Shown: piece by piece, positions 1,787 through 54,913 of the stretch
Position numbering within the stretch: position 1 is the first letter of the stretch
Layout: each line of letters begins with the position of its first letter
IMG/VR virus record: IMGVR_UViG_3300047157_000068
Coordinates: 32,001 to 96,000 of that record
Length of the DNA: 64,000 bases
DNA from: a virus
Reading direction: 5' to 3' (one strand)
Position numbers and translations under genes: made by a program
The notes under the pieces: generated by a model
What the model was told of the DNA's origin: nothing
Seen by the model: only the letters and a program-made list of their open reading frames with translations
The model's database searches: none

Positions 1787-3532
1787 TTATTTCTTTTTTC
1801 CTCTTAATTTAAACTTAGTCATTTTTTGTTTAATAGCAGGATCCATTTCTGATGCATACTTAGTTCCACACATCATAAAATCTTCTGTTTCACTCATCTT
1901 ATATGCATTTTTAGATATGTCACCTGATGCAGATAATTTTAACAAAAGTTTATTTCCTGGTTTTGAAAACGTATGTTCTGCAGTATCAGTACCGGAATAT
2001 ACTTCCCATGTTGCTCCATCATCATTAGACACATAATAACTCAATGTACAACCATTAGGAATAAAATAATCTACTCTATTCCAAAAAACAAAATCAACAG
2101 AAGCTGAGTTATCTAATGTATAAGGTCCATATACTATTTCCCAATTAGGTATAAAATGATTAGCATATTTTGCATCCCATATTCTAAAACCATGTCCATC
2201 ATATCCATAACCCATCTGAATCCACCATTCTGCACCGCCTGTAGAATACATTCTAGTAATGTTACATCCATAATCAGCTCTATAAGATCTTCCTCTTCCC
2301 TCTGATGTGGTATCTTCAACAACTGTATCATGTCTACGTAAAGCAACATATCTATCATTATCTTGATCTAAGAATCCTGGTATCATAGCTCCACCTCTAT
2401 CTGCTGCAGTAGGAATAAAATTAGGATAACCTACCATTTTATCAGTTGGTTTACCACCTTGAGCATCTTGATACTTTACTCCAGCTCTAAATAAAATACC
2501 ATAGTTATTACCTGGATTAGTAGAACCTTCATATGTAATTTGCAAAACAGTGGCTTTATTACCAGTAAGACATGGAGTCACATCAAGTTTGGTATGTCTA
2601 CCAGACGCACCAACCCAAAATACATTAGGTTCATTTATTGGATCGGGTATAAACCATCCTTGTTCATAACCATCATCTCCCTGACTTATATCTCCCATAT
2701 CTACATAAACTGATTTAGGTTTGGCTGTAGATGCATCTAATATTAGAGAAAAGTTTGCATTATAGTAATAAGCATATAATATCCTGTCATTAATTTCATC
2801 ATACATAATCCAACCTCTGTATCCATTTCTATCTACAGGTTCGGAGCCTTCAAACATTATATTTCCTGCTGTGGCATCCATATATAATCTTTCTTCAACA
2901 CCAGTTTTCATGTTTCTACGCATACATCTTTTATAATGTCTTGCATCATAGTCACTTGCATATGCCCATTCTCCTGCTGCACACAAGCCTCCTACATAAT
3001 ATAGACCTGTGCTTTCTACATAACCTCCACCAGTATCTTGTGACCCTATATATATTTGAGGATTACTGTGTGTTGGTCTTGGATCTTTAACAAAGGTTGA
3101 TCCTCCATTCATAAGACCACTGTAGTCAAATGTAGTATAGCCATTAACATTATAAGTCATAACTACACCTTTCTTGTTTATTTTATCAATACAAATAGAT
3201 TGCATATGGTTGTATGTAGATGTTGTATCTCTCCATAAAAAGTTACTGTCAAAAAATAACCTTGTCATAGTACCATCATCATTTAGTCTACGTACAGCAA
3301 AGCCATCACCCCAACCAACTGTAAAAAGTAAGTCACCATCTATTTCAAAAGCAGTTGTATAACCAATAAGTCTGTCACCACCATCATATTCACCACTACC
3401 AGAAGACACAGTAACATTACTCATACCTCTTTTAGTTACAGGTACAATAGCTACTTGCCCACTATAATTATTAGAGGCACATCCTACAATGGATTTTATA
3501 TCACTATTACTTACGTTAGTTGCTTTAAACAT
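1787..3532 (-). CDS. Virion-associated protein, possibly a beta-propeller receptor-binding protein
   Basis: 581-aa ORF rich in Tyr/Gly/Asp inside the tail module. The fold is inferred from composition only. Confidence 0.5.
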   Translation of the reverse strand: MFKATNVSNSDIKSIVGCASNNYSGQVAIVPVTKRGMSNVTVSSGSGEYDGGDRLIGYTTAFEIDGDLLFTVGWGDGFAVRRLNDDGTMTRLFFDSNFLWRDTTSTYNHMQSICIDKINKKGVVMTYNVNGYTTFDYSGLMNGGSTFVKDPRPTHSNPQIYIGSQDTGGGYVESTGLYYVGGLCAAGEWAYASDYDARHYKRCMRRNMKTGVEERLYMDATAGNIMFEGSEPVDRNGYRGWIMYDEINDRILYAYYYNANFSLILDASTAKPKSVYVDMGDISQGDDGYEQGWFIPDPINEPNVFWVGASGRHTKLDVTPCLTGNKATVLQITYEGSTNPGNNYGILFRAGVKYQDAQGGKPTDKMVGYPNFIPTAADRGGAMIPGFLDQDNDRYVALRRHDTVVEDTTSEGRGRSYRADYGCNITRMYSTGGAEWWIQMGYGYDGHGFRIWDAKYANHFIPNWEIVYGPYTLDNSASVDFVFWNRVDYFIPNGCTLSYYVSNDDGATWEVYSGTDTAEHTFSKPGNKLLLKLSASGDISKNAYKMSETEDFMMCGTKYASEMDPAIKQKMTKFKLRGKKK

Positions 3533-3693
3533 TCTTGTATTTCAAATTGTAACATTTTAATCATACTATCATTAGAACCTGCTGGAGCTACATTTACCAT
3601 GTTTAACTCTTCAGCCAATGCTTCTTCAAATTCAGCTAGACAATCTAACCAATATTGTCTGTCATCTGTTATTTCAGTTCCTCTTTCTGACAT
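3511..3693 (-). CDS. Small hypothetical protein
   Basis: 60-aa ORF tightly packed between co-oriented tail genes. Confidence 0.5.
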   Translation of the reverse strand: MSERGTEITDDRQYWLDCLAEFEEALAEELNMVNVAPAGSNDSMIKMLQFEIQECLKQLT

Positions 3694-3694
3694 C

Positions 3695-5287
3695 TTATGT
3701 TGTTATTACTTCTACCCAAAACTGGTGAAAATTCCTACTTACTCCTACACTATGCATATAAGATGAATTCATTCCGCTATAAACCAATGACGCATTAGAT
3801 CTTGATAATGCACCTTGAGTTGTTGCTGAATCCATGTATATTTCTATGTGGTCTATAAATCTTGACAAAGGCAAATCATATTGAACATAATATGCAGAAG
3901 GTAATTCTATTACTGACATATTAATAACAGACAACGCACCTGCTGTATAAGCTTGACTTACTAATGAAGGACTTGAATATACACCTTCTTTAACGGCATA
4001 TATTCTATATGACATTGTACCACTAGTATTAAATGTAGTATCTACAATAGTCATTGTGCCAGAAAAATCATCTATTGGTACTTGACCTATAATACCAAAG
4101 TCTGCACCATCATCTGATGACCAAACTTGATAGTAATCTATATTATTTGAACTTGATTTACCAAATACAACCTCTATTGTTTGACCAACCACTGAAGCTG
4201 ATACATTAGTAGGAGCACCTGGAGCTGCAGGTCTATGATTGCTTATAGCATTATCTACATATGTTTTATTTGTTGCATCTGTACCAGATGAAACTGTATC
4301 TACCCCTTGTATTCTACCAGTTCCCCCAAGGGTAATGTCACCACCAGAAACTGTTATATCATTAGCAAAAGTAGAATTACCACTTGAATCATTTATTGTT
4401 GTTGTTTTTCTACCTGCCCAGCTACTACTCCAATTATCAGGGGAAGAGTTTATCTGTATTCCTGACTCAGCATTTAAATAAACTAACTCACCTGTTTGTC
4501 CTGATGCGTAACTAGATGATTCTCCTGCATTAAGTACAAGTTGTTGACCACCATAAGTTCTTACTTGATTAGTTCTTAATCCATCTCCATTGGAAAAATC
4601 AGCTCTACTTGTAAATGTTTTTACATCACCAATGGATTGTGCACCTGAAGTTCTTACTACTGTACTATCTACTTCAATTGTACCTGTTGAGGTTATTGTA
4701 CCTCCTGTAATACCATTTGATGTAGCTATAGAAGTAACACCTGAGCTTGTAACATATCTTCCATCAAGATCAACTGTTACTGCAGTAAGTCCAGATCTAT
4801 TAAGTGTTAATACACCATTACCTGTATCAAAAGATGCAGAACTTAAATAATAGTTTGTTGTTGTATCCTTAGATATAATCTCAATAGTATCTGTACTTGC
4901 ATCAGTCTTTATTGTAATATTACTACCTGCTTTAAATGTAAGTGTATCATTATTATTATCTGCAACAATGTTAGATTGACCAGCTGCTGCAATATTTTTA
5001 AATATGTTTTGAGCTGAACCTCTATCACTATTTGATAAGGTTATTGTACCACTTGATGTTATTGTACCTGTACCAGATAAACCATTAGAACCTGTAACAG
5101 TAACTGAAGTCACAGTACCTGTTCCTGAACCTGCACCAATATCTGATAAAAGTTGAGCTTTAGTTCTGTACTTCAATCCTGAACCATCCCATACTAATAT
5201 ACCAGTATATGTACTGTTATCATTCGCTATACTAGTGACAGTACATGATCCGTTTATTTCTATTGAAGATAAAAAACTTATAGCCAT
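3695..5287 (-). CDS. Tail fibre protein with C-terminal fibronectin type III-like domain(s)
   Basis: GTVTSV / GGTITSTGTI fibre repeats; C-terminal PGAPTNVSAS...YYQVW...YRIYAV FN3 pattern. Confidence 0.7.
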   Translation of the reverse strand: MAISFLSSIEINGSCTVTSIANDNSTYTGILVWDGSGLKYRTKAQLLSDIGAGSGTGTVTSVTVTGSNGLSGTGTITSSGTITLSNSDRGSAQNIFKNIAAAGQSNIVADNNNDTLTFKAGSNITIKTDASTDTIEIISKDTTTNYYLSSASFDTGNGVLTLNRSGLTAVTVDLDGRYVTSSGVTSIATSNGITGGTITSTGTIEVDSTVVRTSGAQSIGDVKTFTSRADFSNGDGLRTNQVRTYGGQQLVLNAGESSSYASGQTGELVYLNAESGIQINSSPDNWSSSWAGRKTTTINDSSGNSTFANDITVSGGDITLGGTGRIQGVDTVSSGTDATNKTYVDNAISNHRPAAPGAPTNVSASVVGQTIEVVFGKSSSNNIDYYQVWSSDDGADFGIIGQVPIDDFSGTMTIVDTTFNTSGTMSYRIYAVKEGVYSSPSLVSQAYTAGALSVINMSVIELPSAYYVQYDLPLSRFIDHIEIYMDSATTQGALSRSNASLVYSGMNSSYMHSVGVSRNFHQFWVEVITT

Positions 5288-5321
5288 GACATTTTATTCT
5301 TTGTTTGCAATATACATATTT

Positions 5322-5370
5322 TAAAAAAAAGGGGAAACACTAAATTCTAGATTTAAATGCTCCCCCTTTA
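5322..5370 (-). terminator. Probable intrinsic terminator
   Basis: aaagggga...tccccctttt-like inverted repeat followed by a T-run on the minus strand, just after the 5385 stop. Confidence 0.5.
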
Positions 5371-5384
5371 AATTCTACTCTTTA

Positions 5385-7790
5385 TTATCCTACAAGTTGC
5401 ATTACTACTGTAATGTCATTTGCACCCATATTAGCACTTGTAGTAAATGTTACAGTTCCTGAAGCTTTATCTGCAAGAACATCCATAAATACTTGATTTC
5501 CTTTAGAATCATAAGTTTGAATAATCCAAGGTCCATTAGCTAATCCATGAACACCAGTAGCAATACTAAAAGTGTTTGTAGTAGTTGCTGGATAAGTACC
5601 TGTGTATGATCTTTTAGATTGAGCACTTGCCAATGTTGCTGGAGTTACATATCTAAATGTATCTGTTCCCGCATCAACTTCAGCTTGTGTTGCTATCTCT
5701 GTAACACCAACTGATCCTGTTGCAGCATTAGGTAATGTTCTTTTACTCATTGATGTAATAACACCATCTGTAACATTAATCTGATCTACAACGTCTACAT
5801 CACTTGTATCAAGATCTGTACTAGTACCAATCTCTTTGTTGAATGTACTTGCTAGTTGAGCATCACTAATTCCACCTGCTTTAACAGTAATAAATCCAGT
5901 TGCTGTACCAGCAAAAGTTGCACTACTAAATCCAGCAACACCTTTTTCAGTTGCTCCATCTGTAGCACCTACTCCTGCAATGTTTTGATCTTGAATAACA
6001 ATAGCATAATCTGAAGCTGGAGGATTAGAACTTGCTGCAATTGCTTGATTAGCATAAATTGTATCTCCAACCTCTACATCTACATTACTTCCATTAAATG
6101 CTATAGTACCATCTTTAGTAACAACAAAGAAATCCCCGGTTGTTAGTGCAATGTTACTTGCTCCTGCTATTGCTGGTGAGTTTGCTGATGCATCATATCC
6201 ACCTTGGAATACACCAACTCCGGCTACAAGTGCTTGTACTTGTCCTAAGTTAACTGCATCTTTTGATGCTGTACCATTTGCTAAAGCTGTAAGTTTGAAA
6301 GCTCCAAAACTTAAATCAGCAAAAGGTGCATCAAATACAGATAATGAAACTTTACCAAGCGGTTGTTTAACTGTTTCTCCTTTACCACTTGCTACATCTT
6401 GTATTAATATAAGGTCATCAATCAGTGGATTTTGTGCCATTGGTGGAGCATCTTCTATAAGACCAGTTATACCATAATCAACTTCAACTGTTCCTGTAGC
6501 TGTAATTGTTCCACCTGTAAGACCTTTACCTGTACCAACACTTGTTACTGTACCAGTTGTATAAGTACCTAAAGTTAAATCACCAAGTACTACTTGACTT
6601 GATGAACCTGCTCCTGCAATGTTTATTGTACCTGAAGTAGTAATTGGTCCACCTGTAATTGTTAATGCATTACCTGTTTCTGTTATTTCAATACTTGTTA
6701 CACCTGAACCAGAATCATTAACCCACTCTACTACACCTAATGAGGAAACAGCAAGTCTTTGCCCACTTCCACCAATTCCTAATGTAGCTAATGAATTTGC
6801 ACCATCTGCAAATAATATATCTCCTTTGGTATATGATGCTAATCCTGTACCTCCGTTTACTTCGTTTAATGTACCAGCTAAAGTAATTGTTCCAGAAGCT
6901 GTAATTGGACCACCACTTGTTGTTAAACCAGTAGTTCCACCACTAACATCAACAGAAGTTACAGAACCTGCACCTGCATTAATATAACTTGCTACTTGAG
7001 ATAAGTTTGCAAATTTAGCATTGCTATCTGTATCATCAGAAAATAAAATTTTATCATCCGCAACTAAAGTAACAGCTGTTCCATCAGCACCATCTAAAAT
7101 TATGTTATCAGCTCCTGCATATTGTACAGATATTGTACCTGTTGCAGTAATGGCACCACCAGTTAAACCAGCTCCAGAATCTACAGAAGTTACTGTACCA
7201 TCTTTACCAAACCCTGGCATTTTATCAATTGATGTCTTGTAGATAACATCATCTGCTTGAGCTGAAAACCATAAAAAGTCTTCTGATGTTGGACTCTGTG
7301 CAGTTGCTGCTAAGATTGCATTCGCTGCAGTATCATATAGAATATTTACTGTAGGTACGTCTGTTGATTTACCAGTTATACTAATACCAGTACCAGCTAC
7401 AACATCTGTTACTGTACCAACGTATTGATCAGCTGAATTAATAGTGAATGTAGAACCGGCACGTGTTACTGTAGTTGTACCAGAACCTGTATATACTATT
7501 GAATCAGTACTAGCTGGATTTGAAGCAACTAAATTTAATGTTGCTGTTCCGTTACCAGATCCTGTTGCTGTTAAGTCATAGGTTGTGTTACCATCTGCAC
7601 CTGTTGTTATATCTACCCAAGCAGAACCATCATATAATTTTAGTTTATTTGTACCAGAGTTATAATAGATTTTACCTGCAATTCCTGACGGGTCAGCGCC
7701 AAGAGGCTGAATGATCACATTTTGTATTTGATTATCATTCAGATTTAAATTTCCTTGGACATTAAGTCCCGTTAAAAATTGTACTGCCAT
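5385..7790 (-). CDS. Long tail fibre / structural protein
   Basis: 801 aa with repeated GTVTSV..G.GLTGG.IT..GTI motifs and a GVTEIATQAEVDAGTD..RYVTP fibre repeat. Confidence 0.75.
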   Translation of the reverse strand: MAVQFLTGLNVQGNLNLNDNQIQNVIIQPLGADPSGIAGKIYYNSGTNKLKLYDGSAWVDITTGADGNTTYDLTATGSGNGTATLNLVASNPASTDSIVYTGSGTTTVTRAGSTFTINSADQYVGTVTDVVAGTGISITGKSTDVPTVNILYDTAANAILAATAQSPTSEDFLWFSAQADDVIYKTSIDKMPGFGKDGTVTSVDSGAGLTGGAITATGTISVQYAGADNIILDGADGTAVTLVADDKILFSDDTDSNAKFANLSQVASYINAGAGSVTSVDVSGGTTGLTTSGGPITASGTITLAGTLNEVNGGTGLASYTKGDILFADGANSLATLGIGGSGQRLAVSSLGVVEWVNDSGSGVTSIEITETGNALTITGGPITTSGTINIAGAGSSSQVVLGDLTLGTYTTGTVTSVGTGKGLTGGTITATGTVEVDYGITGLIEDAPPMAQNPLIDDLILIQDVASGKGETVKQPLGKVSLSVFDAPFADLSFGAFKLTALANGTASKDAVNLGQVQALVAGVGVFQGGYDASANSPAIAGASNIALTTGDFFVVTKDGTIAFNGSNVDVEVGDTIYANQAIAASSNPPASDYAIVIQDQNIAGVGATDGATEKGVAGFSSATFAGTATGFITVKAGGISDAQLASTFNKEIGTSTDLDTSDVDVVDQINVTDGVITSMSKRTLPNAATGSVGVTEIATQAEVDAGTDTFRYVTPATLASAQSKRSYTGTYPATTTNTFSIATGVHGLANGPWIIQTYDSKGNQVFMDVLADKASGTVTFTTSANMGANDITVVMQLVG

Positions 7791-31701: not shown

Positions 31702-32299
31702 ATGCAAAATCAAGTAGAAGTCCTAGCGGATGACATGGGTAATGTTGTACGCTTAAGCAAAAACAATCCAGAGTATGGATTTATTAGATTAGGTCAAACA
31801 AGATCTATAATTACTAAAGATGGTTGGTTAGCGCCAAAGAATCTTACAACTTTAGTATTAGGTAAAGCAGAAGATTTAACAACTTATGCTAAAACTTTAG
31901 GTAAAACATTACCTGGTAAAATTGTAGTAATAGAATCATTAGAGCCTTTTAACTCTAAAGATCCAGACAGAGATTATAAATATGCAGGTCAAACTGGTAT
32001 TATATGCTGTCAAGACGGACAACCTATTTATAGGAAAACACAATACACTCTTGATCTAAATAAAGAGGATGTATTGGTAGAGCACACTAATGGTGATGCT
32101 ATCCGTGCTGCAAATGAAACTGCTTTTAACTTAGACAAAAAAACCTAAGAAAGCAACAACTGCAGAAGCATTTGGTTTGAAAACAGATGATGGTACACCA
32201 CCATTAGATGAAGTTGAAGACATGGATGTTGTTGAAGAAGAGGTAGTTGCTGAAACAGAAGAAGAACTAGTTGAAGAGGAAGAAACTTTTGAACTATAA
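31702..32299 (+). CDS. Putative ssDNA-binding protein with acidic tail (frameshift in poly-A near 32140)
   Basis: The shifted frame continues ...PLDEVEDMDVVEEEVVAETEEELVEEEETFEL*, then a terminator hairpin. Confidence 0.55.
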
Positions 32300-42550: not shown

Positions 42551-42828
42551 TTACATTAGATGAGTTTTTTAAATTAAAAGAAATGTTTCAAGGTTTACCT
42601 GATGATCAGGAGATGGCTTGGGAGATTTACAAGAATAATTATAAAGATGATGCTATTGATTTACTTATGCATAAAGCATTAGTTTTTAAGCATAGAAAGA
42701 AGTTTGCTGATGCGGTTCAGTTTATTGATGAACCTGTAATTGGTAAGCAAGCTTTATATTACTATATAGAATTCCATAAAGCGGATGCTATTTATAAAGA
42801 AATATTAGATAAAATTATGAATCAATGA
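42526..42828 (+). CDS. Helical protein sharing a motif with the 45266 and 46297 proteins
   Basis: ITLDEFFKLKEMFQGLPDDQEMAWEI segment. Confidence 0.55.
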   Translation: MDRNNYKVITLDEFFKLKEMFQGLPDDQEMAWEIYKNNYKDDAIDLLMHKALVFKHRKKFADAVQFIDEPVIGKQALYYYIEFHKADAIYKEILDKIMNQ

Positions 42829-43988
42829 TAAACATACAAGATCAGGTTGCAAGAACAACCAAAAGTTTAATATTTACAGAGCCCTTTTACGGGCTCTTTT
42901 TAATTGGTATCAATAAACAATATAGTGAGCGTATTCCTACAGCAGGAGTAAGTAAGCAAGGTATTGGTATACAATTGACAATAAACCCAGAGTTTTATAA
43001 TGGACTTAGTGAAGATCACAGATTTGGATTAATTAAACATGAGCTTTTGCATATTGCATTTGGACATCTTTTATTAAGAGATCTATATTCTAATCATAAG
43101 TTATTTAATATAGCTGCAGATTTAGAGATCAACCAGTACATACTGGAAAGTAAATTACCTGAAGGTGGTTTATTACTCTCAAGTTTTCCTGAATTAAATC
43201 TTCCTACAAAAGCAGGTACAAAAGAATATTACAGACTTTTGGAAGAAGCACAACAGGATGGAACTTGTCCTTCATTAGATAATCTAATGGATCAGATGGA
43301 TGGTAATTCACCATACTGTCATAGTACATGGGAAGAGTTTGATGCATTACCTGAAGCAGATAAAAAGTTAGTTCAAAAACAAATTGAACATCAGCTTAAA
43401 GAATCTGCTGAACAAACAGAAAAGAAACAGGGTACTGTCCCTGGTGAACTTGCTGATTTGATTCATAGGTTAACACACATTGAACCGCCCAAGTTTGATT
43501 GGAAAGGATATCTAAGAAGATTTGTAGGTAACTCTAGTATAGTATATACTAAAAAGCTGAGACGTAAATACAATAAACGTTATTCAGCTAATCCAGGACT
43601 TAAGATTAAATTCAAGAATCATATTCTTGTTGGTGTTGACACAAGTGGATCTGTAAATAATGATGAGCTTAAAGAGTTCTTTAGTGAACTTGCACATATG
43701 TATAAGACAGGTCATAAAATTACAGTAGCACAATGTGACACCCGCTTGAATAGCGTGAAAGAGTTTAATCCAAAAAAAGATTGGGAAATACATGGTCGTG
43801 GTGGGACAAGCTTCCAACCAGTAGTAGATCATTTTAATGAAAACAAAGGGCAGTATACAGCTCTAATATATTTAACAGATGGTGAGGCTTATTCTCCAGA
43901 AAACTGTCCAAACAACACCTTATGGGTATTGAGCAGTATTTCTGATATGAATAATGAACTACCAGGACAAGTAATTAAATTAAATTAA
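42825..43988 (+). CDS. Metallopeptidase (HEXXH) plus VWA domain protein (DUF2201-like)
   Basis: HELLH, NIAADLEIN, MIDAS DTSGS, GRGGTSF and LTDG motifs. Confidence 0.88.
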   Translation: MINIQDQVARTTKSLIFTEPFYGLFLIGINKQYSERIPTAGVSKQGIGIQLTINPEFYNGLSEDHRFGLIKHELLHIAFGHLLLRDLYSNHKLFNIAADLEINQYILESKLPEGGLLLSSFPELNLPTKAGTKEYYRLLEEAQQDGTCPSLDNLMDQMDGNSPYCHSTWEEFDALPEADKKLVQKQIEHQLKESAEQTEKKQGTVPGELADLIHRLTHIEPPKFDWKGYLRRFVGNSSIVYTKKLRRKYNKRYSANPGLKIKFKNHILVGVDTSGSVNNDELKEFFSELAHMYKTGHKITVAQCDTRLNSVKEFNPKKDWEIHGRGGTSFQPVVDHFNENKGQYTALIYLTDGEAYSPENCPNNTLWVLSSISDMNNELPGQVIKLN

Positions 43989-43995
43989 TAGAAAA

Positions 43996-45264
43996 ATGGC
44001 ACAAGTAAATTTAAATGTAACAGAGTTAAAAGGATTTGTAAATCACATAATTACTAATAACAGATATTTGCAAGAAGCAGGTAAGAATTCTGTATCTGTA
44101 GAAGTTGTAGGTGAATCAGGTATTGGTAAGACTTCTACTATAGTAGAGCTTGCTCAAGATAATAACCTAAAGTTTGTAAAGCTTAATTTAGCTCAGATAG
44201 AAGAACTAGGTGACTTAGTTGGTTTCCCTGTACGTCAATTTCAGATGTATAAAGAAAAGCAAGTACCTGCAAAGAAGATTGATGACATATCTTATACAGC
44301 AGCACAAAGAGCTGCAGCATCATCAGATTTAGCTAATCTGAAAACTACTACCAAGAAAGTTGGTATGTGGGTTGATGAACTTGCCGTACAAGAGTATCTA
44401 AAAAATGGATACAAAATGACTGGTAAGAACAGAATGTCTTATTGTGCTCCTGAATGGATTGCAGATGCAAAGGCCGGTGGTATCTTATTACTAGATGACT
44501 GGAACCGTGCTGACACAAGATTTATTCAGGCAGTTATGGAATTGATTGATAGACAATCTTATATTTCATGGACATTACCAAAAGACTGGCACATAATTTT
44601 GACAGCAAATCCAGACAACGGAGATTATATGGTTAACAGTGTAGATAGTGCACAGAAGACTAGATATGTAACCGCTAACTTGAAGTTTGATGTTAATGTA
44701 TGGGCACAATGGGCTGAGGGTGCAGGAATTGATACTAGATGTATTAACTTCCTGTTGCTCCATCCAGAGTTAGTAACACAAGAAACTAATGCAAGATCAA
44801 TTACTACATTCTTTAATGCAATATCAAGCTTTGATTCTTTTGAGGATAACCTCAGCATGATTCAGATGATTGGTGAGGGTAGTGTTGGTGATGCTTTTGC
44901 TTCTATGTTTACAACCTTTATTAATAATAAGCTTGATAAGCTTGTAACACCTAAAGATTTGTTAACTCATGAAAATGAATCATACATCTTGGGTGAGCTT
45001 AGAAGTTGTATTGGTAAAGATGATACGTACCGTGCAGATATTGCATCTACTCTGGCTACAAGGCTGGGTAACTTCTCAGTTGTTCATTCTAAAGAGAATA
45101 CAATAACTCAGAAGTTGACTGATAGATTAATAGCACTATGTACTAAAGATTATTTTACTAATGATCTTAAGTATTTGATTGTGCGTACAATCTTTAATGG
45201 TAATAAAAAGAAGTTTAACAAATTGATGATGGTTCCTGAAATCATCCAAATGACAATGAAATAA
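43996..45264 (+). CDS. MoxR-like AAA+ ATPase
   Basis: GESGIGKT, EELGDLVGFP, LLLDDWNR and ILTANP motifs. Confidence 0.88.
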   Translation: MAQVNLNVTELKGFVNHIITNNRYLQEAGKNSVSVEVVGESGIGKTSTIVELAQDNNLKFVKLNLAQIEELGDLVGFPVRQFQMYKEKQVPAKKIDDISYTAAQRAAASSDLANLKTTTKKVGMWVDELAVQEYLKNGYKMTGKNRMSYCAPEWIADAKAGGILLLDDWNRADTRFIQAVMELIDRQSYISWTLPKDWHIILTANPDNGDYMVNSVDSAQKTRYVTANLKFDVNVWAQWAEGAGIDTRCINFLLLHPELVTQETNARSITTFFNAISSFDSFEDNLSMIQMIGEGSVGDAFASMFTTFINNKLDKLVTPKDLLTHENESYILGELRSCIGKDDTYRADIASTLATRLGNFSVVHSKENTITQKLTDRLIALCTKDYFTNDLKYLIVRTIFNGNKKKFNKLMMVPEIIQMTMK

Positions 45265-45265
45265 A

Positions 45266-46300
45266 ATGGCAAATAAATCAGTATATCAAAATTTTGATAC
45301 TGATGCTTTAAAGCACTTTGGACTAGAAGCTGACCCTGTATATGGGTTGGTTTCTAGTACTGGTGTTAATAAAGTATTATGTACTCAAGACCAAACAACA
45401 TATGAAAAAATAAACACTATACTAACGGTCCCTACAGAGGATGACCAAACTTTTAGAACCAAAAAGAAAGCTTTCATACTACCAAAGTGTAATGTATCAC
45501 AGGATAGATTGAAGGCTGCTCTTAAAGAGCATGGTATAACTGTAACAAATGATTATGAAATAGCAGATCTAATTATAGGTCATGATGAAATATCAACTTA
45601 TAAATTAACTAATGCTGAGAATATTCCTTCTACAGTAATGATGAATAAGTTATGGAATTATGAGACTACAAAAGGAGATGTGAATGGACATGGTATTATT
45701 AAAAAAATAGGTGATTCAGGTTTGGAATGTATTATTACACCAAAGATCACAGATAAAGTAAGATACTATGATATAGATATAGAAGATAGTTTGTATGATA
45801 GCTGGATGTTAACTGGTATGGCTATAAACTTGGCTCATATAATTGATACTACAGATGTTAGTGTTATTGATCCTGAGACAGTCCTTCATGCGTCTGCTAC
45901 TAAAATGACTCTTGATGAACAGCTTCTTAGTGATCTTAAAACTCAGTTAAATTCATATTCTGATGATAAATCTTTAGCTCTTAAAATTATACCAACTATA
46001 GATTATAAGAAAAACTATCATTTATTATGGCAGTTTGCACAAGACTGTAGTAGTATAACATATGCAGATAATAGAGATAAAGATTTGCAGTATTGGTTAG
46101 AGGCATCAAACTTTAATGATTTTAATCGTAAGAGTGCACAAGACATGATATTATGGTTAGAGCAAGAAGAGAAACTTGATAAAGTAACATTCAGATATCT
46201 TGAGCCTATAGTAAGAAGAGAAATAAGCATTCACAACAGAGATCTTTATACATTTAAAGTAGCTGTTAAAAAAGAATATCAAAAATATTTAAAGAAATGA
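45266..46300 (+). CDS. BRCT-like domain protein A
   Basis: KAFILPKCNVSQDRLKAALKEHGITVTNDYEIADLIIG; paralogous to 46297. Confidence 0.5.
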   Translation: MANKSVYQNFDTDALKHFGLEADPVYGLVSSTGVNKVLCTQDQTTYEKINTILTVPTEDDQTFRTKKKAFILPKCNVSQDRLKAALKEHGITVTNDYEIADLIIGHDEISTYKLTNAENIPSTVMMNKLWNYETTKGDVNGHGIIKKIGDSGLECIITPKITDKVRYYDIDIEDSLYDSWMLTGMAINLAHIIDTTDVSVIDPETVLHASATKMTLDEQLLSDLKTQLNSYSDDKSLALKIIPTIDYKKNYHLLWQFAQDCSSITYADNRDKDLQYWLEASNFNDFNRKSAQDMILWLEQEEKLDKVTFRYLEPIVRREISIHNRDLYTFKVAVKKEYQKYLKK

Positions 46301-47445
46301 GAAAAAGAGTAAAATTAGAAATTAATTGTACAAATGATACAATAGATACCAATGGAAGATTGAAAGGGGATGCATTCAAATGGAATTTCCTAGATGGTAT
46401 GCACATGTATAATAGTAATTCATGGGAAGTTAGACCTGAAGATATGGTTAAGCTTGGTGTACCAAATCTTGCAGATACTGTTGACTTACAAGATAAAAAA
46501 ATCTATAGGTATCCAAAATTGGATTTACCTAGACAGAAAGTAGATCTTTTGAAAGAAAGGTTTAACTGTAAAGTTATTAGAGATATAAATAAAGCTGACG
46601 TAGGGATTGTTTCTATGAAGTTTTTTGATAAACTTATTCAAAGAGAATGGGGAACCTCTGTCTCTTATGTAGAAATGTATAGAGTTTTAGCAGAACTTAA
46701 AAATTCAGATTTATTATCTGACTCTGCATTGGCTATACTAAGAGATTTTATGTCTCAAACAGATACTACATATAGAGTTAGTTATAAATACAACAAAAAC
46801 TGGGGTACTCAAGATGCTGCTGTAACAAAAATGTATGAGTTTATAGAACAAATAACTCAGGCAAATAGATCAAAATATGATGATGGTCATGATTGGATAT
46901 TACCAAAAGAGAACTACGCTGTGTATGATAGTATTATAAACTCTAAGGTTACTCTTATTGTAGACACTAGTGTGTGTGCTATAATAGATGAGGATCTTGC
47001 TGTTTTAGAAAGTGAAAAGTTTGATGAGGTAGAGAAAATGGTTACTAGTAGTGATATAGATAATAGATCATTAGCCTTAGAGATGTTGGCTAACTCCAAT
47101 ATTGAAAAATCATTTGATGTAGTATCTGGTATTTATTTTTGGCACTATGATTGGCTTAAAGCTACTACAAACTGGAATACAGTTAACGTTAAAGCTTTTA
47201 GAAAAAGAATGAAAGCTTATGAAGGAAATCATAATACTCAAGCTATTTACTCTTTCAATAAGTATCTAAATCTTTTGGCTGCTGACAGAAAATTAACTAA
47301 ATTTGCTGTGGATAGTACAAGAGAAAAGCTTCATACAACATTTCTAGCTAGTTTAGTAGGACCAAGTGCAAATGTATTTAAGGTTGACTTAGATTCTTTG
47401 TACATTAATGAAGAATTAACTAATAAAATTATTTCAGATGAATAG
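46297..47445 (+). CDS. BRCT-like domain protein B
   Basis: KIYRYPKLDLPRQKVDLLKERFNCKVIRDINKADVGIVS; paralogous to 45266. Confidence 0.5.
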   Translation: MRKRVKLEINCTNDTIDTNGRLKGDAFKWNFLDGMHMYNSNSWEVRPEDMVKLGVPNLADTVDLQDKKIYRYPKLDLPRQKVDLLKERFNCKVIRDINKADVGIVSMKFFDKLIQREWGTSVSYVEMYRVLAELKNSDLLSDSALAILRDFMSQTDTTYRVSYKYNKNWGTQDAAVTKMYEFIEQITQANRSKYDDGHDWILPKENYAVYDSIINSKVTLIVDTSVCAIIDEDLAVLESEKFDEVEKMVTSSDIDNRSLALEMLANSNIEKSFDVVSGIYFWHYDWLKATTNWNTVNVKAFRKRMKAYEGNHNTQAIYSFNKYLNLLAADRKLTKFAVDSTREKLHTTFLASLVGPSANVFKVDLDSLYINEELTNKIISDE

Positions 47446-49848: not shown

Positions 49849-49936
49849 AACAGTAGAAGCAGCAGCTAGAGCTTTAGGTATTACATCAAGAACTTTACAT
49901 ACATTTAAAGATAAACTTAAAAATAGAAAAGAATGA
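49790..49936 (+). CDS. Small Fis-like HTH protein (48 aa)
   Basis: ALKKHKTVEAAARALGITSRTL; ATGA overlap with the PolB start. Confidence 0.65.
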   Translation: METLIQMRERVMTLALKKHKTVEAAARALGITSRTLHTFKDKLKNRKE

Positions 49937-51924
49937 AGCATTGGGTAATGGACTATGAAACTTTATCTAATTGTTTCACCGGGGTATTTGAACACTATAA
50001 GACTACAGAAACAAAAGTCTTTGTTATTCATGACCTGCGTAATGATTTAGATGAGTTCATTAGTTTCTTAGAAGAAAACTTTAATAATAAAGAGTGGCAT
50101 ATATCCTATAATGGATTGGCCTTTGATGCTCAAGTCACTCACTATATAATAGATAACCATATTGATTGGTCAGATCTTAGTGGTTGTGAGATTGCTAGTA
50201 TTATTTATAGATATGCCCAACGTTGTATTCAGAAATCTAACAATAAAGAATTCAGTGATTACCCACAATGGAAGATGATAATTGGTCAAATAGACATATT
50301 TAAACTTCATCATTGGGATAATCCAGCTAAGCGTTCAAGTCTTAAGTGGATTCAGTATAGCATGGATTGGGAAAACATCCTTGACATGCCTATTCATCAT
50401 GAGACAGAGATAACTAAACAAGAAGAAATAGATACTATACTTGAATATTGTATTAATGATGTAAGATCTACTAAAGAAATTTATAATAGATCTAAGTCAC
50501 AGGTTGGTTTAAGAAAAGAACTGACCCAGACTTATAACATTAATCTGTTTAGTGCTTCTGAGCCCCGTATTAGTAAAGAACTTTTTGGATTTTATTTATC
50601 AGAAAAACTTAATATACAAAAGAGGGACCTAAAACAAATGAGAACTCATAGAACTGTAATTAAAGTTGATGATATTATATTACCATACATCTCGTTTACA
50701 TCTCCTGAGTTTAAAACATTACATGATAGGTTTAAATCTCTTGAGATAGATGCAACAAGATTAAAAGGTAGTTTTAAATATCATATTAATTACAAAGATG
50801 TGAAGACTCACTTTGGTTTAGGAGGTGCACACGGTGCTGCTGCTAAAGGAGTTTATGAAAGCTCAGATGATATGATCATTATGTCTTCGGATGTAACTAG
50901 TTTTTATCCTAATCTAGCTATTAAAAACAAGTGGTCTCCTGCGCATTTTCCAGTTGACCAGTTTTGTGATCAGTATGAGTGGTTCTTTGAGGAGCGTAAG
51001 AAGATACCTAAGAGCAATCCAATGAATTATGTATACAAGATTATACTTAATTCTACTTTTGGTCTTAGTAATGATGTAAACAGCTTCTTTTATGACCCTG
51101 AGTTGTGTATGAGAATTACAATTAACGGTCAACTAACGTTGATGATGTTGTATGAACAAATAATGGAGCGTATACCGGGTGCTGTTGCTTTATTACAAAA
51201 CACAGATGGTGTAGAAACTATTATACCTAGGGAGCACTATGATTTATATATGCAAATATGTGAAGAATGGGAAAATGCTACAAGTTTAAACTTAGAACAT
51301 GATGAATATCAAAAGCTTGTTTTATCTGATGTAAATAATTACATTGGTGTAAACAACTTTGTAAACGTTGACATTACTAAGTGGAGAGAAGTTAAACAAA
51401 GTCAGCCTCATTACCTATTTAAGGTTGAGAATGATAAATTTAGCTTTGCACCTGTTAAGCTTAAGGGTAGATTTGACTTTCATAATCTTCAATTGCATAA
51501 GAATAAGTCTAAGCTAGTGATCCCAAAGGCCATATATCAATACTTTGTTAATGATGTGCTACCAGAAGATTACTTAGAAGAGAATAAAAATATTCTTGAT
51601 TATTGTATAGGTGGTAAATCTAAAGGTGATTGGCAACAAGTAGCCCGCAGTATATTAAACGGTGCTTATAATGAAGAGCCATTGCAGAAAATCAATAGAT
51701 ATTTTATATCTAAAGAAGGTGTAAAGATTATTAAAGTCAACAAGAATGATGGGCGTGAGATACAGTTAGAATCAGGTAGATGGTTGCAAACAGTCTTTAA
51801 CAAGATGGAAGTTAAACCTAAATGGTCTGATTATAATATAGATAAGTTATATTATCTTCAAGCTATTGAATCTGAGATAAATAGTATACTCTCTGTAAAA
51901 ACAAATCAATTAAAATTATTTTAA
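49933..51924 (+). CDS. polB: Family B DNA polymerase with 3'-5' exonuclease
   Basis: Exonuclease motifs DYET, YNGLAFD and YCINDV; polymerase motifs DVTSFYP, KIILNSTFG and NTDG. Confidence 0.92.
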   Translation: MKHWVMDYETLSNCFTGVFEHYKTTETKVFVIHDLRNDLDEFISFLEENFNNKEWHISYNGLAFDAQVTHYIIDNHIDWSDLSGCEIASIIYRYAQRCIQKSNNKEFSDYPQWKMIIGQIDIFKLHHWDNPAKRSSLKWIQYSMDWENILDMPIHHETEITKQEEIDTILEYCINDVRSTKEIYNRSKSQVGLRKELTQTYNINLFSASEPRISKELFGFYLSEKLNIQKRDLKQMRTHRTVIKVDDIILPYISFTSPEFKTLHDRFKSLEIDATRLKGSFKYHINYKDVKTHFGLGGAHGAAAKGVYESSDDMIIMSSDVTSFYPNLAIKNKWSPAHFPVDQFCDQYEWFFEERKKIPKSNPMNYVYKIILNSTFGLSNDVNSFFYDPELCMRITINGQLTLMMLYEQIMERIPGAVALLQNTDGVETIIPREHYDLYMQICEEWENATSLNLEHDEYQKLVLSDVNNYIGVNNFVNVDITKWREVKQSQPHYLFKVENDKFSFAPVKLKGRFDFHNLQLHKNKSKLVIPKAIYQYFVNDVLPEDYLEENKNILDYCIGGKSKGDWQQVARSILNGAYNEEPLQKINRYFISKEGVKIIKVNKNDGREIQLESGRWLQTVFNKMEVKPKWSDYNIDKLYYLQAIESEINSILSVKTNQLKLF

Positions 51925-51928
51925 ACAT

Positions 51929-52273
51929 ATGGATTATTTTGAATTAGAATGTGCAGTTGAAAGCTGGGCAGAAGAAAAAGGTATTTTAGAAAAAGCAACG
52001 CCAATGGCCCAAGCTTTAAAGACATTAGAAGAAACAACTGAGCTCTGCACGGCTATCAATGCTGATGACCGTGAAGAGATCATTGATGCTATGGGTGATA
52101 TTATGGTCACCCTGATTATTCAGGCTAAGATGCAAAATGTATCTTTAGAGTATTGTCTTAAGTCAGCTTATAATGTAATTTCTAAACGTACCGGTAAAAT
52201 GGTTAACGGTCAGTTTGTAAAAGATATAGATATTATATCTGGTACTGAGTCAGCTTACATAAAGAATGATTAA
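51929..52273 (+). CDS. MazG-like NTP pyrophosphohydrolase
   Basis: WAEEKGI, KTLEETTEL, DAMGDIMVTL, AYNVISKRTGKMVNGQFVKD. Confidence 0.85.
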   Translation: MDYFELECAVESWAEEKGILEKATPMAQALKTLEETTELCTAINADDREEIIDAMGDIMVTLIIQAKMQNVSLEYCLKSAYNVISKRTGKMVNGQFVKDIDIISGTESAYIKND

Positions 52274-53099
52274 GGTACAAAGAACTAAGACCCTTGTAAC
52301 TAAACCAAATAACAATAGTGCTAACTGCATAGCTCCCAATATTATCTACGGATGTTTTGGCGGCTGTGTAGATACCTATTGTTATATGTCTAGATATAAT
52401 GGCAAAAGAGTCTTTGTTAATGAAAACGTTGACCAGATCTTCCAGTCTGTAGTTAATTGGGAAAAATCTTACTATAAAGAACCTGATCAACAAGACCCTA
52501 TATATACTATGGTAGATGTAGCATGCAATTCAGATTTAGTTCTAATGCAAAAACATATGCCTGAACCTTTAATTGATTACCTTAAACGTTATGATGATCA
52601 TCCTCAGCTTAATAGCACTATGGCCACTAAGTATCCGGGGTTGTTGAAGCTTGACGTAAAAAAGTTCAACAAGCCTCCAAGAGTACGTGTAAGTCTTATG
52701 CCTCAAGCTTACTCTACGGTTTTAGAACCTAAGATGTCAAGTATTGAGAGCCGAATACATGACATTAACCGTCTAAAAGATTTAGGCTGGCAAGTTCATC
52801 TTAATTATAGCCCTTTAGTCTTTTATCCCGGTTGGAAAGAAGAGTATGATAAACTTTTTGCACAGGTAAAAGAACAGGCAGGCATAAATAAATGTGAAGT
52901 TATTGCACTTACTAATCATACTAATCAAATGGCCAAGGCATCACCAGAAGCTCAGGACATGATGAAGTATAGTTCAGAAGTAAAGAATCAAAGCGGTGTC
53001 ATGAGATATCCTCTGATGCATAAAGGCCGGTTATTAAGAGAGTTTAAAGAGATATACAGTAAATATTTTCCTTTAAATACAATAAGATATATATTTTAA
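52266..53099 (+). CDS. Spore photoproduct lyase-like radical SAM enzyme
   Basis: GCFGGCVDTYCY cluster motif, plus PDQQDP, DVACNSD, ATK, RVRVSLMP and VHLNYSP, as in SPL-family proteins. Confidence 0.8.
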   Translation: MIKVQRTKTLVTKPNNNSANCIAPNIIYGCFGGCVDTYCYMSRYNGKRVFVNENVDQIFQSVVNWEKSYYKEPDQQDPIYTMVDVACNSDLVLMQKHMPEPLIDYLKRYDDHPQLNSTMATKYPGLLKLDVKKFNKPPRVRVSLMPQAYSTVLEPKMSSIESRIHDINRLKDLGWQVHLNYSPLVFYPGWKEEYDKLFAQVKEQAGINKCEVIALTNHTNQMAKASPEAQDMMKYSSEVKNQSGVMRYPLMHKGRLLREFKEIYSKYFPLNTIRYIF

Positions 53100-53150
53100 T
53101 TTGCTGTGTCAGATTAATTTATTATATTTACACTTTAAAAGTTTAATATT

Positions 53151-54032
53151 ATGGGACATAAAAAACCAACAGAGACCACAAGGTCTTATTTAGAGAATGC
53201 ACCCTTACCTAATCATGGTAAGACATACACAGTTGTTACACACAAAGAGGTGATTGACAATACGTTAACTTTACTCAAGAAGAGTGGGTTCACAGTTCAA
53301 AGGGAAATATACAGAGCAAATACTAATGCTACAATTGCACAAGGTATTTATCATATTTACCCTAGTAGAAGCGTTGATGAAGATATCATTAATGAAACTG
53401 AATTAGGGATGATGTTTGCCTGGACTAATTCATATAATAAACTTGTTAGATTCCAATGTGCTATTGGGGCCTATGTTAAGGTTTGTTATAACGGTATGGT
53501 TGCTGGAGATATGATGAATTTCAAAAGAAAACATACTGGGACGGCAAATTTGGATTGCTCTATAAATATAGCTGATCAAGTTAAAAATGCTGAGAAGTAT
53601 TATAAACGTATCATCAAAGATAGAGACGCTATGAAGAATGTTATTCTTACTGAAAGACAACAAGCTGAATTAGTAGGTAGAATGTTTGTACAGGAAGAAC
53701 TTATAGATTCTCAACAAACATCTATTATTAAGGCTGAGCTAGCTAAACCATCATTTCACTATGGTACTGATGCTGAATCCTGCTGGACTTTTTATAATCA
53801 TGTTACACATGCATTAAAGAAAGCACATCCACGCTACTGGTTGCAAGACAGTCAAAATTTTCATGACTTTATTGTTGCAGAATGTTTAAATACATCTAAG
53901 CCAACCATAAAAAAAGAAGCTTTATTATCTGATAAAGTTATTGTAATGTCAGAATCAGTAGAAGAAGTGGTAGAAGTTGATGAAGATGTTACTGACACAC
54001 AACTAATTGAAAATGTATTTCTAGATCAGTGA
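53151..54032 (+). CDS. DUF932-like protein
   Basis: TYTVVTH, NSYNK, VKVCYNGMV, KRKHTG, WTFYNHVTHALK. Confidence 0.7.
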   Translation: MGHKKPTETTRSYLENAPLPNHGKTYTVVTHKEVIDNTLTLLKKSGFTVQREIYRANTNATIAQGIYHIYPSRSVDEDIINETELGMMFAWTNSYNKLVRFQCAIGAYVKVCYNGMVAGDMMNFKRKHTGTANLDCSINIADQVKNAEKYYKRIIKDRDAMKNVILTERQQAELVGRMFVQEELIDSQQTSIIKAELAKPSFHYGTDAESCWTFYNHVTHALKKAHPRYWLQDSQNFHDFIVAECLNTSKPTIKKEALLSDKVIVMSESVEEVVEVDEDVTDTQLIENVFLDQ

Positions 54033-54374: not shown

Positions 54375-54574
54375 AAAAAAAAGATAAAAGAATAGAAAAA
54401 TACTCCAAACTTGGTATTAAATTTATACCCTGTGATGAAGATAGTCAAACATATAATTGGCAAAGAACAAATAGGAAAGCAACCTCTCGTGCTTCTGATG
54501 GTCCTTGTGGAGCATATGAAGTTAGAAAGATTGAAGACGTTATGGCTGAAAGAAGAAAAAGAAAAAAGAAATGA
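54371..54574 (+). CDS. Small basic hypothetical protein
   Basis: ATGA-coupled at both ends. Confidence 0.5.
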   Translation: MKKKDKRIEKYSKLGIKFIPCDEDSQTYNWQRTNRKATSRASDGPCGAYEVRKIEDVMAERRKRKKK

Positions 54575-54885
54575 TTAAAAAAGAATGGCTATTTATGGAC
54601 AAAGCTGAAAAAAGAAAAGAAAGACCAGTATTTACTGGTGTACTTAGATACTTCCCGGATGCTATTATGGAAATAGCTCGTGTATCCTTACAGGGAAACA
54701 AACAACATCATCCTGATAAACCTCTTCATTGGGATCGTAATAAGTCTAATGATGATTATGATGCATTAGCTAGACACTTAATTGATGCAGGTACAATTGA
54801 TGATGATGGGATTCGTCACACCGCAAAGGTTGCTTGGCGTGCTCTTGCATGTTTACAAAAAGAACTAGAAGAAACTAAAGAATAA
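54571..54885 (+). CDS. dATP/dGTP diphosphohydrolase N-terminal domain protein (DUF5664-like)
   Basis: YFPDAIMEIARVS..GN.QH, DALARHL, D.DG..H.AKVAWRALA.LQ. Confidence 0.75.
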   Translation: MIKKEWLFMDKAEKRKERPVFTGVLRYFPDAIMEIARVSLQGNKQHHPDKPLHWDRNKSNDDYDALARHLIDAGTIDDDGIRHTAKVAWRALACLQKELEETKE

Positions 54886-54913
54886 AAAAAGCCCGGAATT
54901 AACCGGGCTCTTT
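54884..54913. terminator. Bidirectional terminator between convergent blocks
   Basis: aaaaaaagcccgg-aattaa-ccgggctcttt. Confidence 0.75.

Follow-up and report, generated by a model that had tools for sequence, protein, structure and literature searches.

A spore photoproduct lyase-family gene with a CX3CX4C cluster motif in the replication module of a marine crAss-like phage

Spore photoproduct lyase (SPL) cleaves a thymine cross-link made by ultraviolet light and needs no light to do so. Here we report on a gene of the SPL family in a 64,000-nucleotide stretch of viral DNA, positions 32,001 to 96,000 of the IMG/VR record IMGVR_UViG_3300047157_000068, termed here as the window. The open reading frame (ORF), 52266-53099 on the plus strand with an ATG start, encodes 277 amino acids, and judging from the sequence and a structural model we consider it probable that the product is a working, light-independent radical S-adenosylmethionine (SAM) DNA-repair lyase, with spore photoproduct (SP) or a very close analogue as its most likely substrate. 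What is new here is the CX3CX4C cluster motif, which was previously undescribed for radical SAM enzymes in the literature searched, no paper having been found that brings the two together, while SPL homologs outside spores were already known.

The protein is confirmed as an SPL homolog, with a similarity far beyond chance. The Pfam profile PF20903 (“SPL”) scored 62.9 bits where the gathering cut-off is 27 (E 3.2e-17), residues 7-209 corresponding to profile positions 65-258, and a single-sequence query of the Protein Data Bank (PDB) gave only one significant sequence match, 4fhc, the SPL of Geobacillus thermodenitrificans (E 2.2e-9). With a 68-member family profile the match to 4fhc reached E 4e-39 and covered native residues ~55-339. 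An AlphaFold2 model built on the family alignment had a mean predicted local distance difference test score (pLDDT) of 96.6, and the top six entries of its Foldseek search against the PDB were all SPL (E ~1e-16), followed by the PFL-activating enzyme at 1e-4. VIA-align placed 265 of the 277 residues onto SPL residues 62-341 with a Z of 26.4 and a root-mean-square deviation of 2.4 Å, compared with a Z of 13-14 for other radical SAM folds (PFL-AE, RlmN, viperin, BioB). The partial TIM-barrel of the model, the N-terminal triad of cluster cysteines and the aligned SAM-binding residues together place the predicted enzyme in the radical SAM superfamily. The SPL-family identity proposed in an initial annotation made from the letters alone is thus upheld by family profiles and model. 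Four of the motifs listed there also align with SPL as had been supposed (TKPNNNSANCIAP with DSSKPSAEYAIP, DVACNSD with EAACTSD, RVRVSLMP with RFRFSINS and VHLNYSP with LGFVVAP, the phage sequence given first), but a fifth, PDQQDP, has no counterpart in SPL, as it falls in an insert specific to the family, opposite a 9-residue gap.

Residue roles were taken from the crystal-structure paper on SPL through a HMMER alignment, the chain numbering being the native one plus 27 (PMC3467042). In SPL, C90, C94 and C97 bind the [4Fe-4S] cluster, K174 and S195 hold the SAM carboxylate, R193, E268 and Y339 contact O4/N3 of the 5′-dihydrothymine, the backbone of the S76-S79 loop holds the 3′-thymine, Y96 and Y98 form a radical relay, and C140 is the H-atom donor (PMC3467042). 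The three cluster ligands correspond to C30, C34 and C39 of the phage protein and the relay tyrosines to Y38 (Y96) and Y40 (Y98), and the remaining counterparts are listed in Table 1. Cluster, SAM, dihydrothymine, relay and H-donor residues are all invariant in 114 close homologs, and across the family as a whole the cluster cysteines, K122, S143, R141, E211 and Y275 are at least 90% conserved. The loop N15-S18 has the family consensus N-G-R-S, with S18 invariant in the A3 alignment. The retained H-donor cysteine that the initial annotation had pointed to is C87, the counterpart of C140, and it too is invariant in the 114 close homologs. By alignment, what SP-type chemistry requires to act on two paired thymines is in place, whereas the DNA-handling surface differs in part. 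Because the H-donor cysteine, the relay tyrosines and the three dihydrothymine-binding residues are kept, we take SP-type chemistry as the best reading.

The reaction that we propose on this basis would run as follows. The SPL-like lyase would be produced alongside the phage replication proteins, and C30, C34 and C39 would hold a [4Fe-4S] cluster, their loop being extended by two residues, with SAM on the unique iron, kept there by K122 and S143, and Y38 beside C39. Reductive cleavage of SAM would yield a 5′-deoxyadenosyl radical, which would take a hydrogen from C6 of a 5,6-dihydrothymine-type base gripped by R141, E211 and Y275, upon which the bridging C-C bond of the lesion would break. C87 would then give an H atom back to the thymine allyl radical, and Y40/Y38 would relay the radical back. 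The substrate would be SP (5-thyminyl-5,6-dihydrothymine), or a close analogue, in phage DNA that had been damaged by sunlight before infection.

In the cluster motif of the phage protein two residues, V35-D36 (52368-52373), are inserted between the second cysteine and the pair preceding the third, the corresponding SPL sequence being CMGHC-HYC. The CX3CX4C motif, two residues longer than CX3CX2C as the initial annotation had it, is real: C30, C34, C39, G32, G33, T37, Y38 and Y40 are invariant in 114 of 114 full-length homologs of 277 amino acids (81-94% identity), and position 36 varies between D, S and N. The median pairwise ratio of nonsynonymous to synonymous substitution rates (dN/dS) over 94 gene pairs was 0.086, an approximate value given that dS is near saturation. 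The invariance and the low dN/dS together exclude a sequencing error and indicate that the motif is under selection. A decayed or non-catalytic remnant, in which the lengthened cysteine loop carries no cluster, might be suspected from the departure from CX3CX2C and from the dispensability of the gene in relatives, but we regard this as highly improbable given that the cysteine triad and the SAM and substrate residues do not vary among the 114 homologs at a dN/dS of ~0.09, that bacteria of several phyla also keep CX3CX4C in their chromosomal genes, and that the model is confident through the loop (pLDDT blocks 92-97).

Full-length members of the family fall into CX3CX2C and CX3CX4C forms, the latter with the signature C-x-G-G-C-x-x-[ST]-Y-C, and this spacing and signature recur in relatives down to ~30% identity. 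CX3CX4C is concentrated in one 26-row subclade, with a Shimodaira-Hasegawa-like approximate likelihood ratio test (SH-aLRT) support of 91, which consists of a 12-row group with CX3CX4C throughout and a mixed group that holds the phage protein; the distant IMG/VR phage loci sampled (L084-L099) all have CX3CX2C. Nine members of the 12-row group come from bacterial genome assemblies (Legionella, Odyssella and other Paracaedibacteraceae, Janthinobacterium, Burkholderiales, Rickettsiaceae, Lewinella, Neolewinella and Cesiribacter), and three are representatives of unknown origin. Gene neighbours in Legionella, Odyssella and Janthinobacterium belong to ordinary Pfam families (SAM synthetase, GGDEF, metallophosphatase) and none of phage type was seen among them, so that CX3CX4C is not phage-specific. 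The idea of a phage peculiarity therefore has to be given up, as Legionella, Odyssella, Janthinobacterium and Lewinella carry the motif in chromosomal genes and, in the closest relatives, it alternates with CX3CX2C. As a separate observation, the genome of Candidatus Odyssella thessalonicensis has an S-adenosylmethionine synthetase gene directly upstream of its short CX3CX4C SPL-like gene (L113, 4249-5445 and 5986-6861, plus strand).

Among the nearest representatives of the phage protein, P0122 and P0124 have four residues between the second and third cysteine and P0123 and P0132 have two, and because the two loop lengths alternate in this way, they look functionally interchangeable. A single origin of the insertion was considered and rejected, since strongly supported branches force at least three state changes, in trees that are otherwise poorly resolved. 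ThiC, an active radical SAM enzyme with a CX2CX4C motif, indicates that four residues between the second and third cysteine are compatible with this chemistry, although its cluster lies in a separate domain, its first spacing is another one and its reaction is unrelated (PMC4389238). By this analogy and from the alignments, the two-residue insertion would seem to be tolerated by the enzyme.

With regard to its lineage, the best NCBIfam model for the phage protein is TIGR03886, “spore photoproduct lyase family protein” (143.1 bits over positions 62-346), although the score is below the cut-off of 437.55, and TIGR04070, the true spore photoproduct lyase equivalog, stayed far under its cut-off of 400, at 58.9 bits (57.8 when the genome was searched). 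The profile search against SPL families that the initial annotation had proposed as a check returned PF20903 above its cut-off and TIGR03886 and TIGR04070 below theirs. Cellular long forms of 343-380 amino acids, as in Spirosoma, Fibrisoma, Rufibacter, Mucilaginibacter and Myxococcus, score 490-600 bits against TIGR03886 and have canonical motifs such as CFGGCAYC, with further full-length TIGR03886 proteins in Pontibacter, Adhaeribacter, Methylobacterium, Roseomonas and Curtobacterium. Other short forms, of 284-294 amino acids, score 300-320 bits over TIGR03886 positions ~58-346. In a tree rooted with TIGR04070-like paralogs, the long cellular forms are basal and the short forms make up a derived clade that includes the phage protein and spans several distinct phage lineages (SH-aLRT 97 for the ingroup and 89 for the short-form clade). 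From the tree placement and the NCBIfam scores, we conclude that the phage protein branched off from the non-spore TIGR03886 lineage as a divergent form with a truncated N-terminus and is not an ortholog of SplB. It is without the first ~55-60 residues, the model starting at SPL residue 62. The name “spore photoproduct lyase”, if taken to mean an ortholog of the spore enzyme, is accordingly not borne out by the TIGR04070 score. Pairs of adjoining TIGR03886 and TIGR04070-like genes were seen in Cytophagales, for example at L133 (4539-5618, minus strand, and 5812-6855, plus strand) and also at L123, L141, L166, L167, L171 and L184, the TIGR04070-like paralog in these pairs scoring 314 bits and having the motif CPAHCQYC.

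With SplB of Bacillus and Geobacillus (TIGR04070, PDB 4fhc), the phage protein has in common the fold over residues 62-341, the SAM ligands, the dihydrothymine triad, the H-donor cysteine, the relay tyrosines and the 3′-thymine loop. Unlike SplB, to which it is ~21% identical, it has CX3CX4C for CX3CX2C, does not keep R273 and K309, has a hairpin without the Arg-Tyr tip, and is phage-borne in a replication module, whereas SplB is under sporulation control. The cellular TIGR03886 proteins share its motif context (CFGGC-AYC in cells, CFGGC-VD-TYC in the phage), but it scores only 143 bits to their model, has ~55-60 fewer N-terminal residues and carries the two-residue insertion.

When one genome of each GTDB species was scanned, relatives turned up in at least 598 non-spore species, and among the best 80 cellular matches are genera that are often characterised as pigmented, surface-exposed and tolerant of desiccation or radiation. 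An “SPL family protein” of Curtobacterium is induced by ultraviolet (UV)-C, which its authors tie to SP formation in desiccated A-form DNA (PMC12029717), LexA boxes were reported on alpha- and beta-proteobacterial splB homologs (PMC3323433), and a connection of SplB-like enzymes with SOS-linked operons has been drawn (PMC3765255). The idea of SPL-type repair outside spores was therefore already there, and the expectation that a phage gene would extend SPL biology beyond spores turns out not to be new. Support for the function of cellular TIGR03886 proteins is limited to the UV-C induction and the LexA boxes, and the biology of this cellular lineage points to UV and desiccation repair. The enzyme is abundant in ocean metagenomes, where more than 1000 protein clusters at 90% identity were found across several phage lineages, and an exhaustive search of 1.84 billion representatives matched only 200 clusters.

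That said, several points weigh against an SP lyase. The ligands of the intra-lesion phosphate are not kept, R273 being T216 and K309 being V245 in the phage protein (the C-terminal alignment is less certain), where the family consensus has T and V/N. The beta-hairpin is shortened, with strands at 238-239 and 245-247 (DSSP on the model) and its tip at N241-Q242, and it is without the aromatic tip, Y305 in SPL, that about half of the family keeps; the short hairpin is typical of the subclade to which the phage protein belongs. About one third of family representatives have N, E or S in place of C87, the C140 equivalent being a cysteine in 9 of 13 CX3CX4C and 20 of 31 short CX3CX2C representatives. 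No demonstrated substrate for any TIGR03886 member, long or short, was found in the literature searched. The TIGR03886 gene directly adjoins a TIGR04070-like paralog in some Cytophagales (Rufibacter, Pontibacter, Catalimonadaceae), which suggests that the two SPL lineages are not redundant and have distinct substrates. The gene is also dispensable, as it is not at its usual position in 42 of 74 close relatives, and SP is a known product in A-form DNA that is dry or SASP-bound, whereas marine virions are hydrated.

Some of these points would also suit an active SPL-fold radical SAM enzyme that works on DNA with a substrate other than SP, the short TIGR03886 branch reversing or processing some other pyrimidine lesion, for instance another dihydropyrimidine adduct or cross-link, or acting on single-stranded or replicating DNA. 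The adjacent paralogs imply different jobs, the replacement of R273 and K309 goes together with a shortened hairpin and a lost N-terminal domain, and the literature searched gave no biochemical characterisation of the TIGR03886 lineage. We hold such a substrate to be rather unlikely, though it deserves serious attention, given that all three dihydrothymine-reading side chains and the 3′-thymine backbone loop are conserved, that the Cys/Tyr relay is kept, which is needed specifically to quench the thymine allyl radical, and that the enrichment of the cellular lineage in desiccation- and UV-tolerant taxa and its UV induction fit SP in dried DNA. A lyase acting on SP or a very close analogue thus stays our preferred reading.

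A different role is raised by the Pseudomonas phage M6, whose gp53 is the only phage- or virus-encoded SPL-like protein for which a paper was found in the literature search. This SPL-like radical SAM enzyme isomerises N-alpha-glycinylthymine in thymidine hypermodification and so sets a precedent for installing a DNA modification instead of repairing DNA (PMC8989533). A distant viral locus, L084, moreover has GATase and Amidoligase_2, Pfam families that were reported in hypermodification contigs (PMC8989533). Both gp53 and the protein described here are phage-encoded and SPL-like, and gp53 acts on thymine derivatives in DNA, but gp53 has 480 amino acids and a canonical CX3CX2C, and the similarity between the two is weak and limited to the core: the family profile matched gp53 with hhalign 90%, E 1.5e-6 over 168 columns and 14% identity, compared with E 4e-39 over the full length for SPL. 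Gp53 works within a cluster of kinase, aGPT-Pplase and pyridoxal phosphate (PLP) genes, and no such cluster was found in the genome of our phage, where homologs of M6 gp51 (aGPT-Pplase2), gp52 (PLP), gp54 (5-hmdU kinase), gp55 and gp58 (hydroxymethylase) were searched for with phmmer (E<=10) and tblastn (E<=1); nor were they found in 97 related viral loci. Thymidylate-synthase-like, kinase and PLP genes were likewise not found by Pfam in the ~70 ORFs scanned. Furthermore, the gene is optional among near-identical phages, which is unexpected for a genome-wide base modification unless the partners came and went too, and none were seen. A DNA-modifying role therefore strikes us as improbable, and repair is retained. 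At L084 itself, a class-II glutamine amidotransferase and Amidoligase_2 lie directly upstream of a short canonical-motif SPL-like gene (3285-4259, 4405-5835 and 5911-6798, plus strand), which is followed by DUF932 and DnaB, and neither a kinase nor aGPT-Pplase was found at that locus.

Table 1. Features of the window that are discussed in the text, in order of position (residue numbers of the 277-amino acid protein).
Feature	Position	Strand	Evidence
DNA polymerase (polB), opening the tightly packed run that holds the SPL-like gene	49933..51924	+	phrog_1252, E 3.7e-131
MazG-like pyrophosphatase, second accessory cassette gene	51929..52273	+	phrog_715
SPL-family radical SAM gene, short form of the TIGR03886 lineage	52266..53099	+	ORF, PF20903, TIGR03886, model, dN/dS
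Loop N15-N16-N17-S18, aligned with SPL S76-K77-P78-S79	52308..52319	+	alignment, conservation
Cluster motif C30-FGG-C34-VDTY-C39-Y40	52353..52385	+	alignment, conservation
DVACNSD; C87 aligned with SPL C140 (H-atom donor to the thymine allyl radical); D90 invariant	52515..52535	+	alignment, conservation
K122, aligned with SPL K174 (SAM carboxylate ligand)	52629..52631	+	alignment, conservation
R139-V-R141-V-S143; R141 aligned with SPL R193 (O4 of 5′-dihydrothymine), S143 with S195 (SAM)	52680..52694	+	alignment, conservation
E211, aligned with SPL E268 (lesion base contact)	52896..52898	+	alignment, conservation
Shortened beta-hairpin E238-Y248 (EVKNQSGVMRY), without the aromatic tip (SPL Y305); R247-Y248 invariant	52977..53009	+	DSSP, alignment
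Y275, aligned with SPL Y339 (O4/N3 of 5′-dihydrothymine)	53088..53090	+	alignment, conservation
DUF932 protein, conserved backbone neighbour downstream	53151..54032	+	PF06067, E 9.7e-15
Bidirectional terminator-like hairpin, end of the plus-strand replication module	54886..54913	.	terminator-like site scan

The SPL-like gene sits inside the replication module, in a tight run with polB and MazG. The MazG gene begins 4 nt past the end of the DNA polymerase, an 8-nt overlap, ATGATTAA, joins the start of the SPL-like gene to the MazG stop, and no terminator-like site was found between the three genes. In other phage groups, too, short SPL-like genes are located in replication/recombination modules. 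An ORF matching PF18909 (“dATP/dGTP diphosphohydrolase N-terminal”; 54571-54885, plus strand) brackets the SPL/DUF932 pair together with the MazG-like gene (51929-52273, plus strand), and the two suggest nucleotide-pool editing. A Z-genome, which these neighbours brought to mind, was considered and rejected, as the PurZ-like adenylosuccinate-synthetase family was not found among the ORFs scanned with Pfam.

The source record is a 115,836-bp IMG/VR virus genome with a CheckV completeness of 100%, and the claim that the gene is phage-encoded is secured by this complete 115.8-kb crAss-like virus genome. It encodes a major head protein, the large terminase subunit, DNA polymerase, MazG, crAss-type tail ring proteins (CrAss_Ring_1/2), a class I ribonucleotide reductase, a DUF2201 metallopeptidase/VWA protein, a DnaB-like helicase, a primase, a UDG-superfamily protein and a PD-(D/E)XK nuclease, as well as two giant ORFs of 1923 and 3390 amino acids, and a batch Pfam scan at genome level added a collagen-repeat protein, a Cpn10-like protein and an Amidase_2/PG_binding lysin. 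The crAss-marker regions lie at 42825-47445 of the window and, outside it, at 99818-115776 of the genome (minus strand). These genes mark the source as a marine crAss-like phage of large size, and close homologs of the SPL-like gene carry Tara Oceans names. A tblastn search of the INPHARED collection of isolated phages gave zero matches, in a collection possibly without records near the window's own genome.

SPL-like genes 81% and 70% identical to that of the phage were found in GTDB on a 19-kb contig of a Flavobacteriales metagenome-assembled genome (MAG; L105) and a 100-kb contig of a “Clostridium sp.” MAG (L106), respectively. In both cases a phage contig was probably binned into the MAG, and the former gives weak evidence for a Flavobacteriales host. 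Both subunits of the oxygen-dependent class I ribonucleotide reductase are phage-encoded (genome 96165-98782; L003 165-2782, plus strand), and since this reductase needs oxygen, the host should be an aerobe, so that the radical SAM enzyme, itself oxygen-labile, has to function in the cytoplasm of an aerobic cell.

To see how the gene is distributed, relatives were collected through the adjacent polymerase (at least 78% identity), which gave 74 loci with enough downstream DNA. The SPL-like gene was present in 32 of these, all with CX3CX4C, and always between polB (with or without MazG) and DUF932. The cassette is thus optional, inserted in a polB-DUF932 backbone that is conserved, and two relatives that are 94% complete were found to have no SPL-like copy anywhere in the genome. 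The slot (51924-53151 in the window; loci L185-L264) takes four states, empty in 23, MazG only in 14, SPL only in 17 and both in 14, and because all four occur, MazG and SPL were gained or lost independently. DUF932, which adjoins the gene in the window as well as at 7 of 17 distant viral loci, was considered as a functional partner and rejected, as it follows polB with or without SPL; no function for DUF932 was found in the literature. The accessory status would fit a niche-dependent benefit, such as one under light exposure.

Sunlight is among the main causes of decay in marine viruses, whose repair is mostly ascribed to host photolyases and to excision repair. T4 endonuclease V (denV) embodies the same concept of phage repair of virion UV lesions after injection, although it is an unrelated protein with unrelated chemistry, a glycosylase/AP-lyase on cyclobutane dimers and not a radical direct-reversal enzyme. 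Our phage has a GC content of 32.6% and ~228 TT/AA steps per kb, TT not being depleted, and no photolyase or other UV-repair family was found by Pfam in the ~70 ORFs scanned. It is conceivable, and we put it forward tentatively, that SP or a thymine-bridged analogue is a significant sunlight lesion in the densely packed DNA of free marine virions, which widespread phages may reverse in the dark with the CX3CX4C lyase after injection; the literature search found no paper on SP in phage capsids or packed virion DNA. If this were so, the presence or absence of the cassette would track light exposure.

The present analysis also brings out that the large TIGR03886 lineage is still one for which no demonstrated substrate was found in the literature searched. 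A minimal SPL of 277 amino acids without the N-terminal domain may be an easier model than SplB, and close relatives with either CX3CX2C or CX3CX4C make a natural test of how far the cluster loop of a radical SAM enzyme stretches. If the SPL-like lyase works on spore photoproduct, this would imply formation of the lesion outside spores and dried cells. With a light-independent direct-reversal enzyme borne by a phage, viruses would have a UV defence of a new kind.

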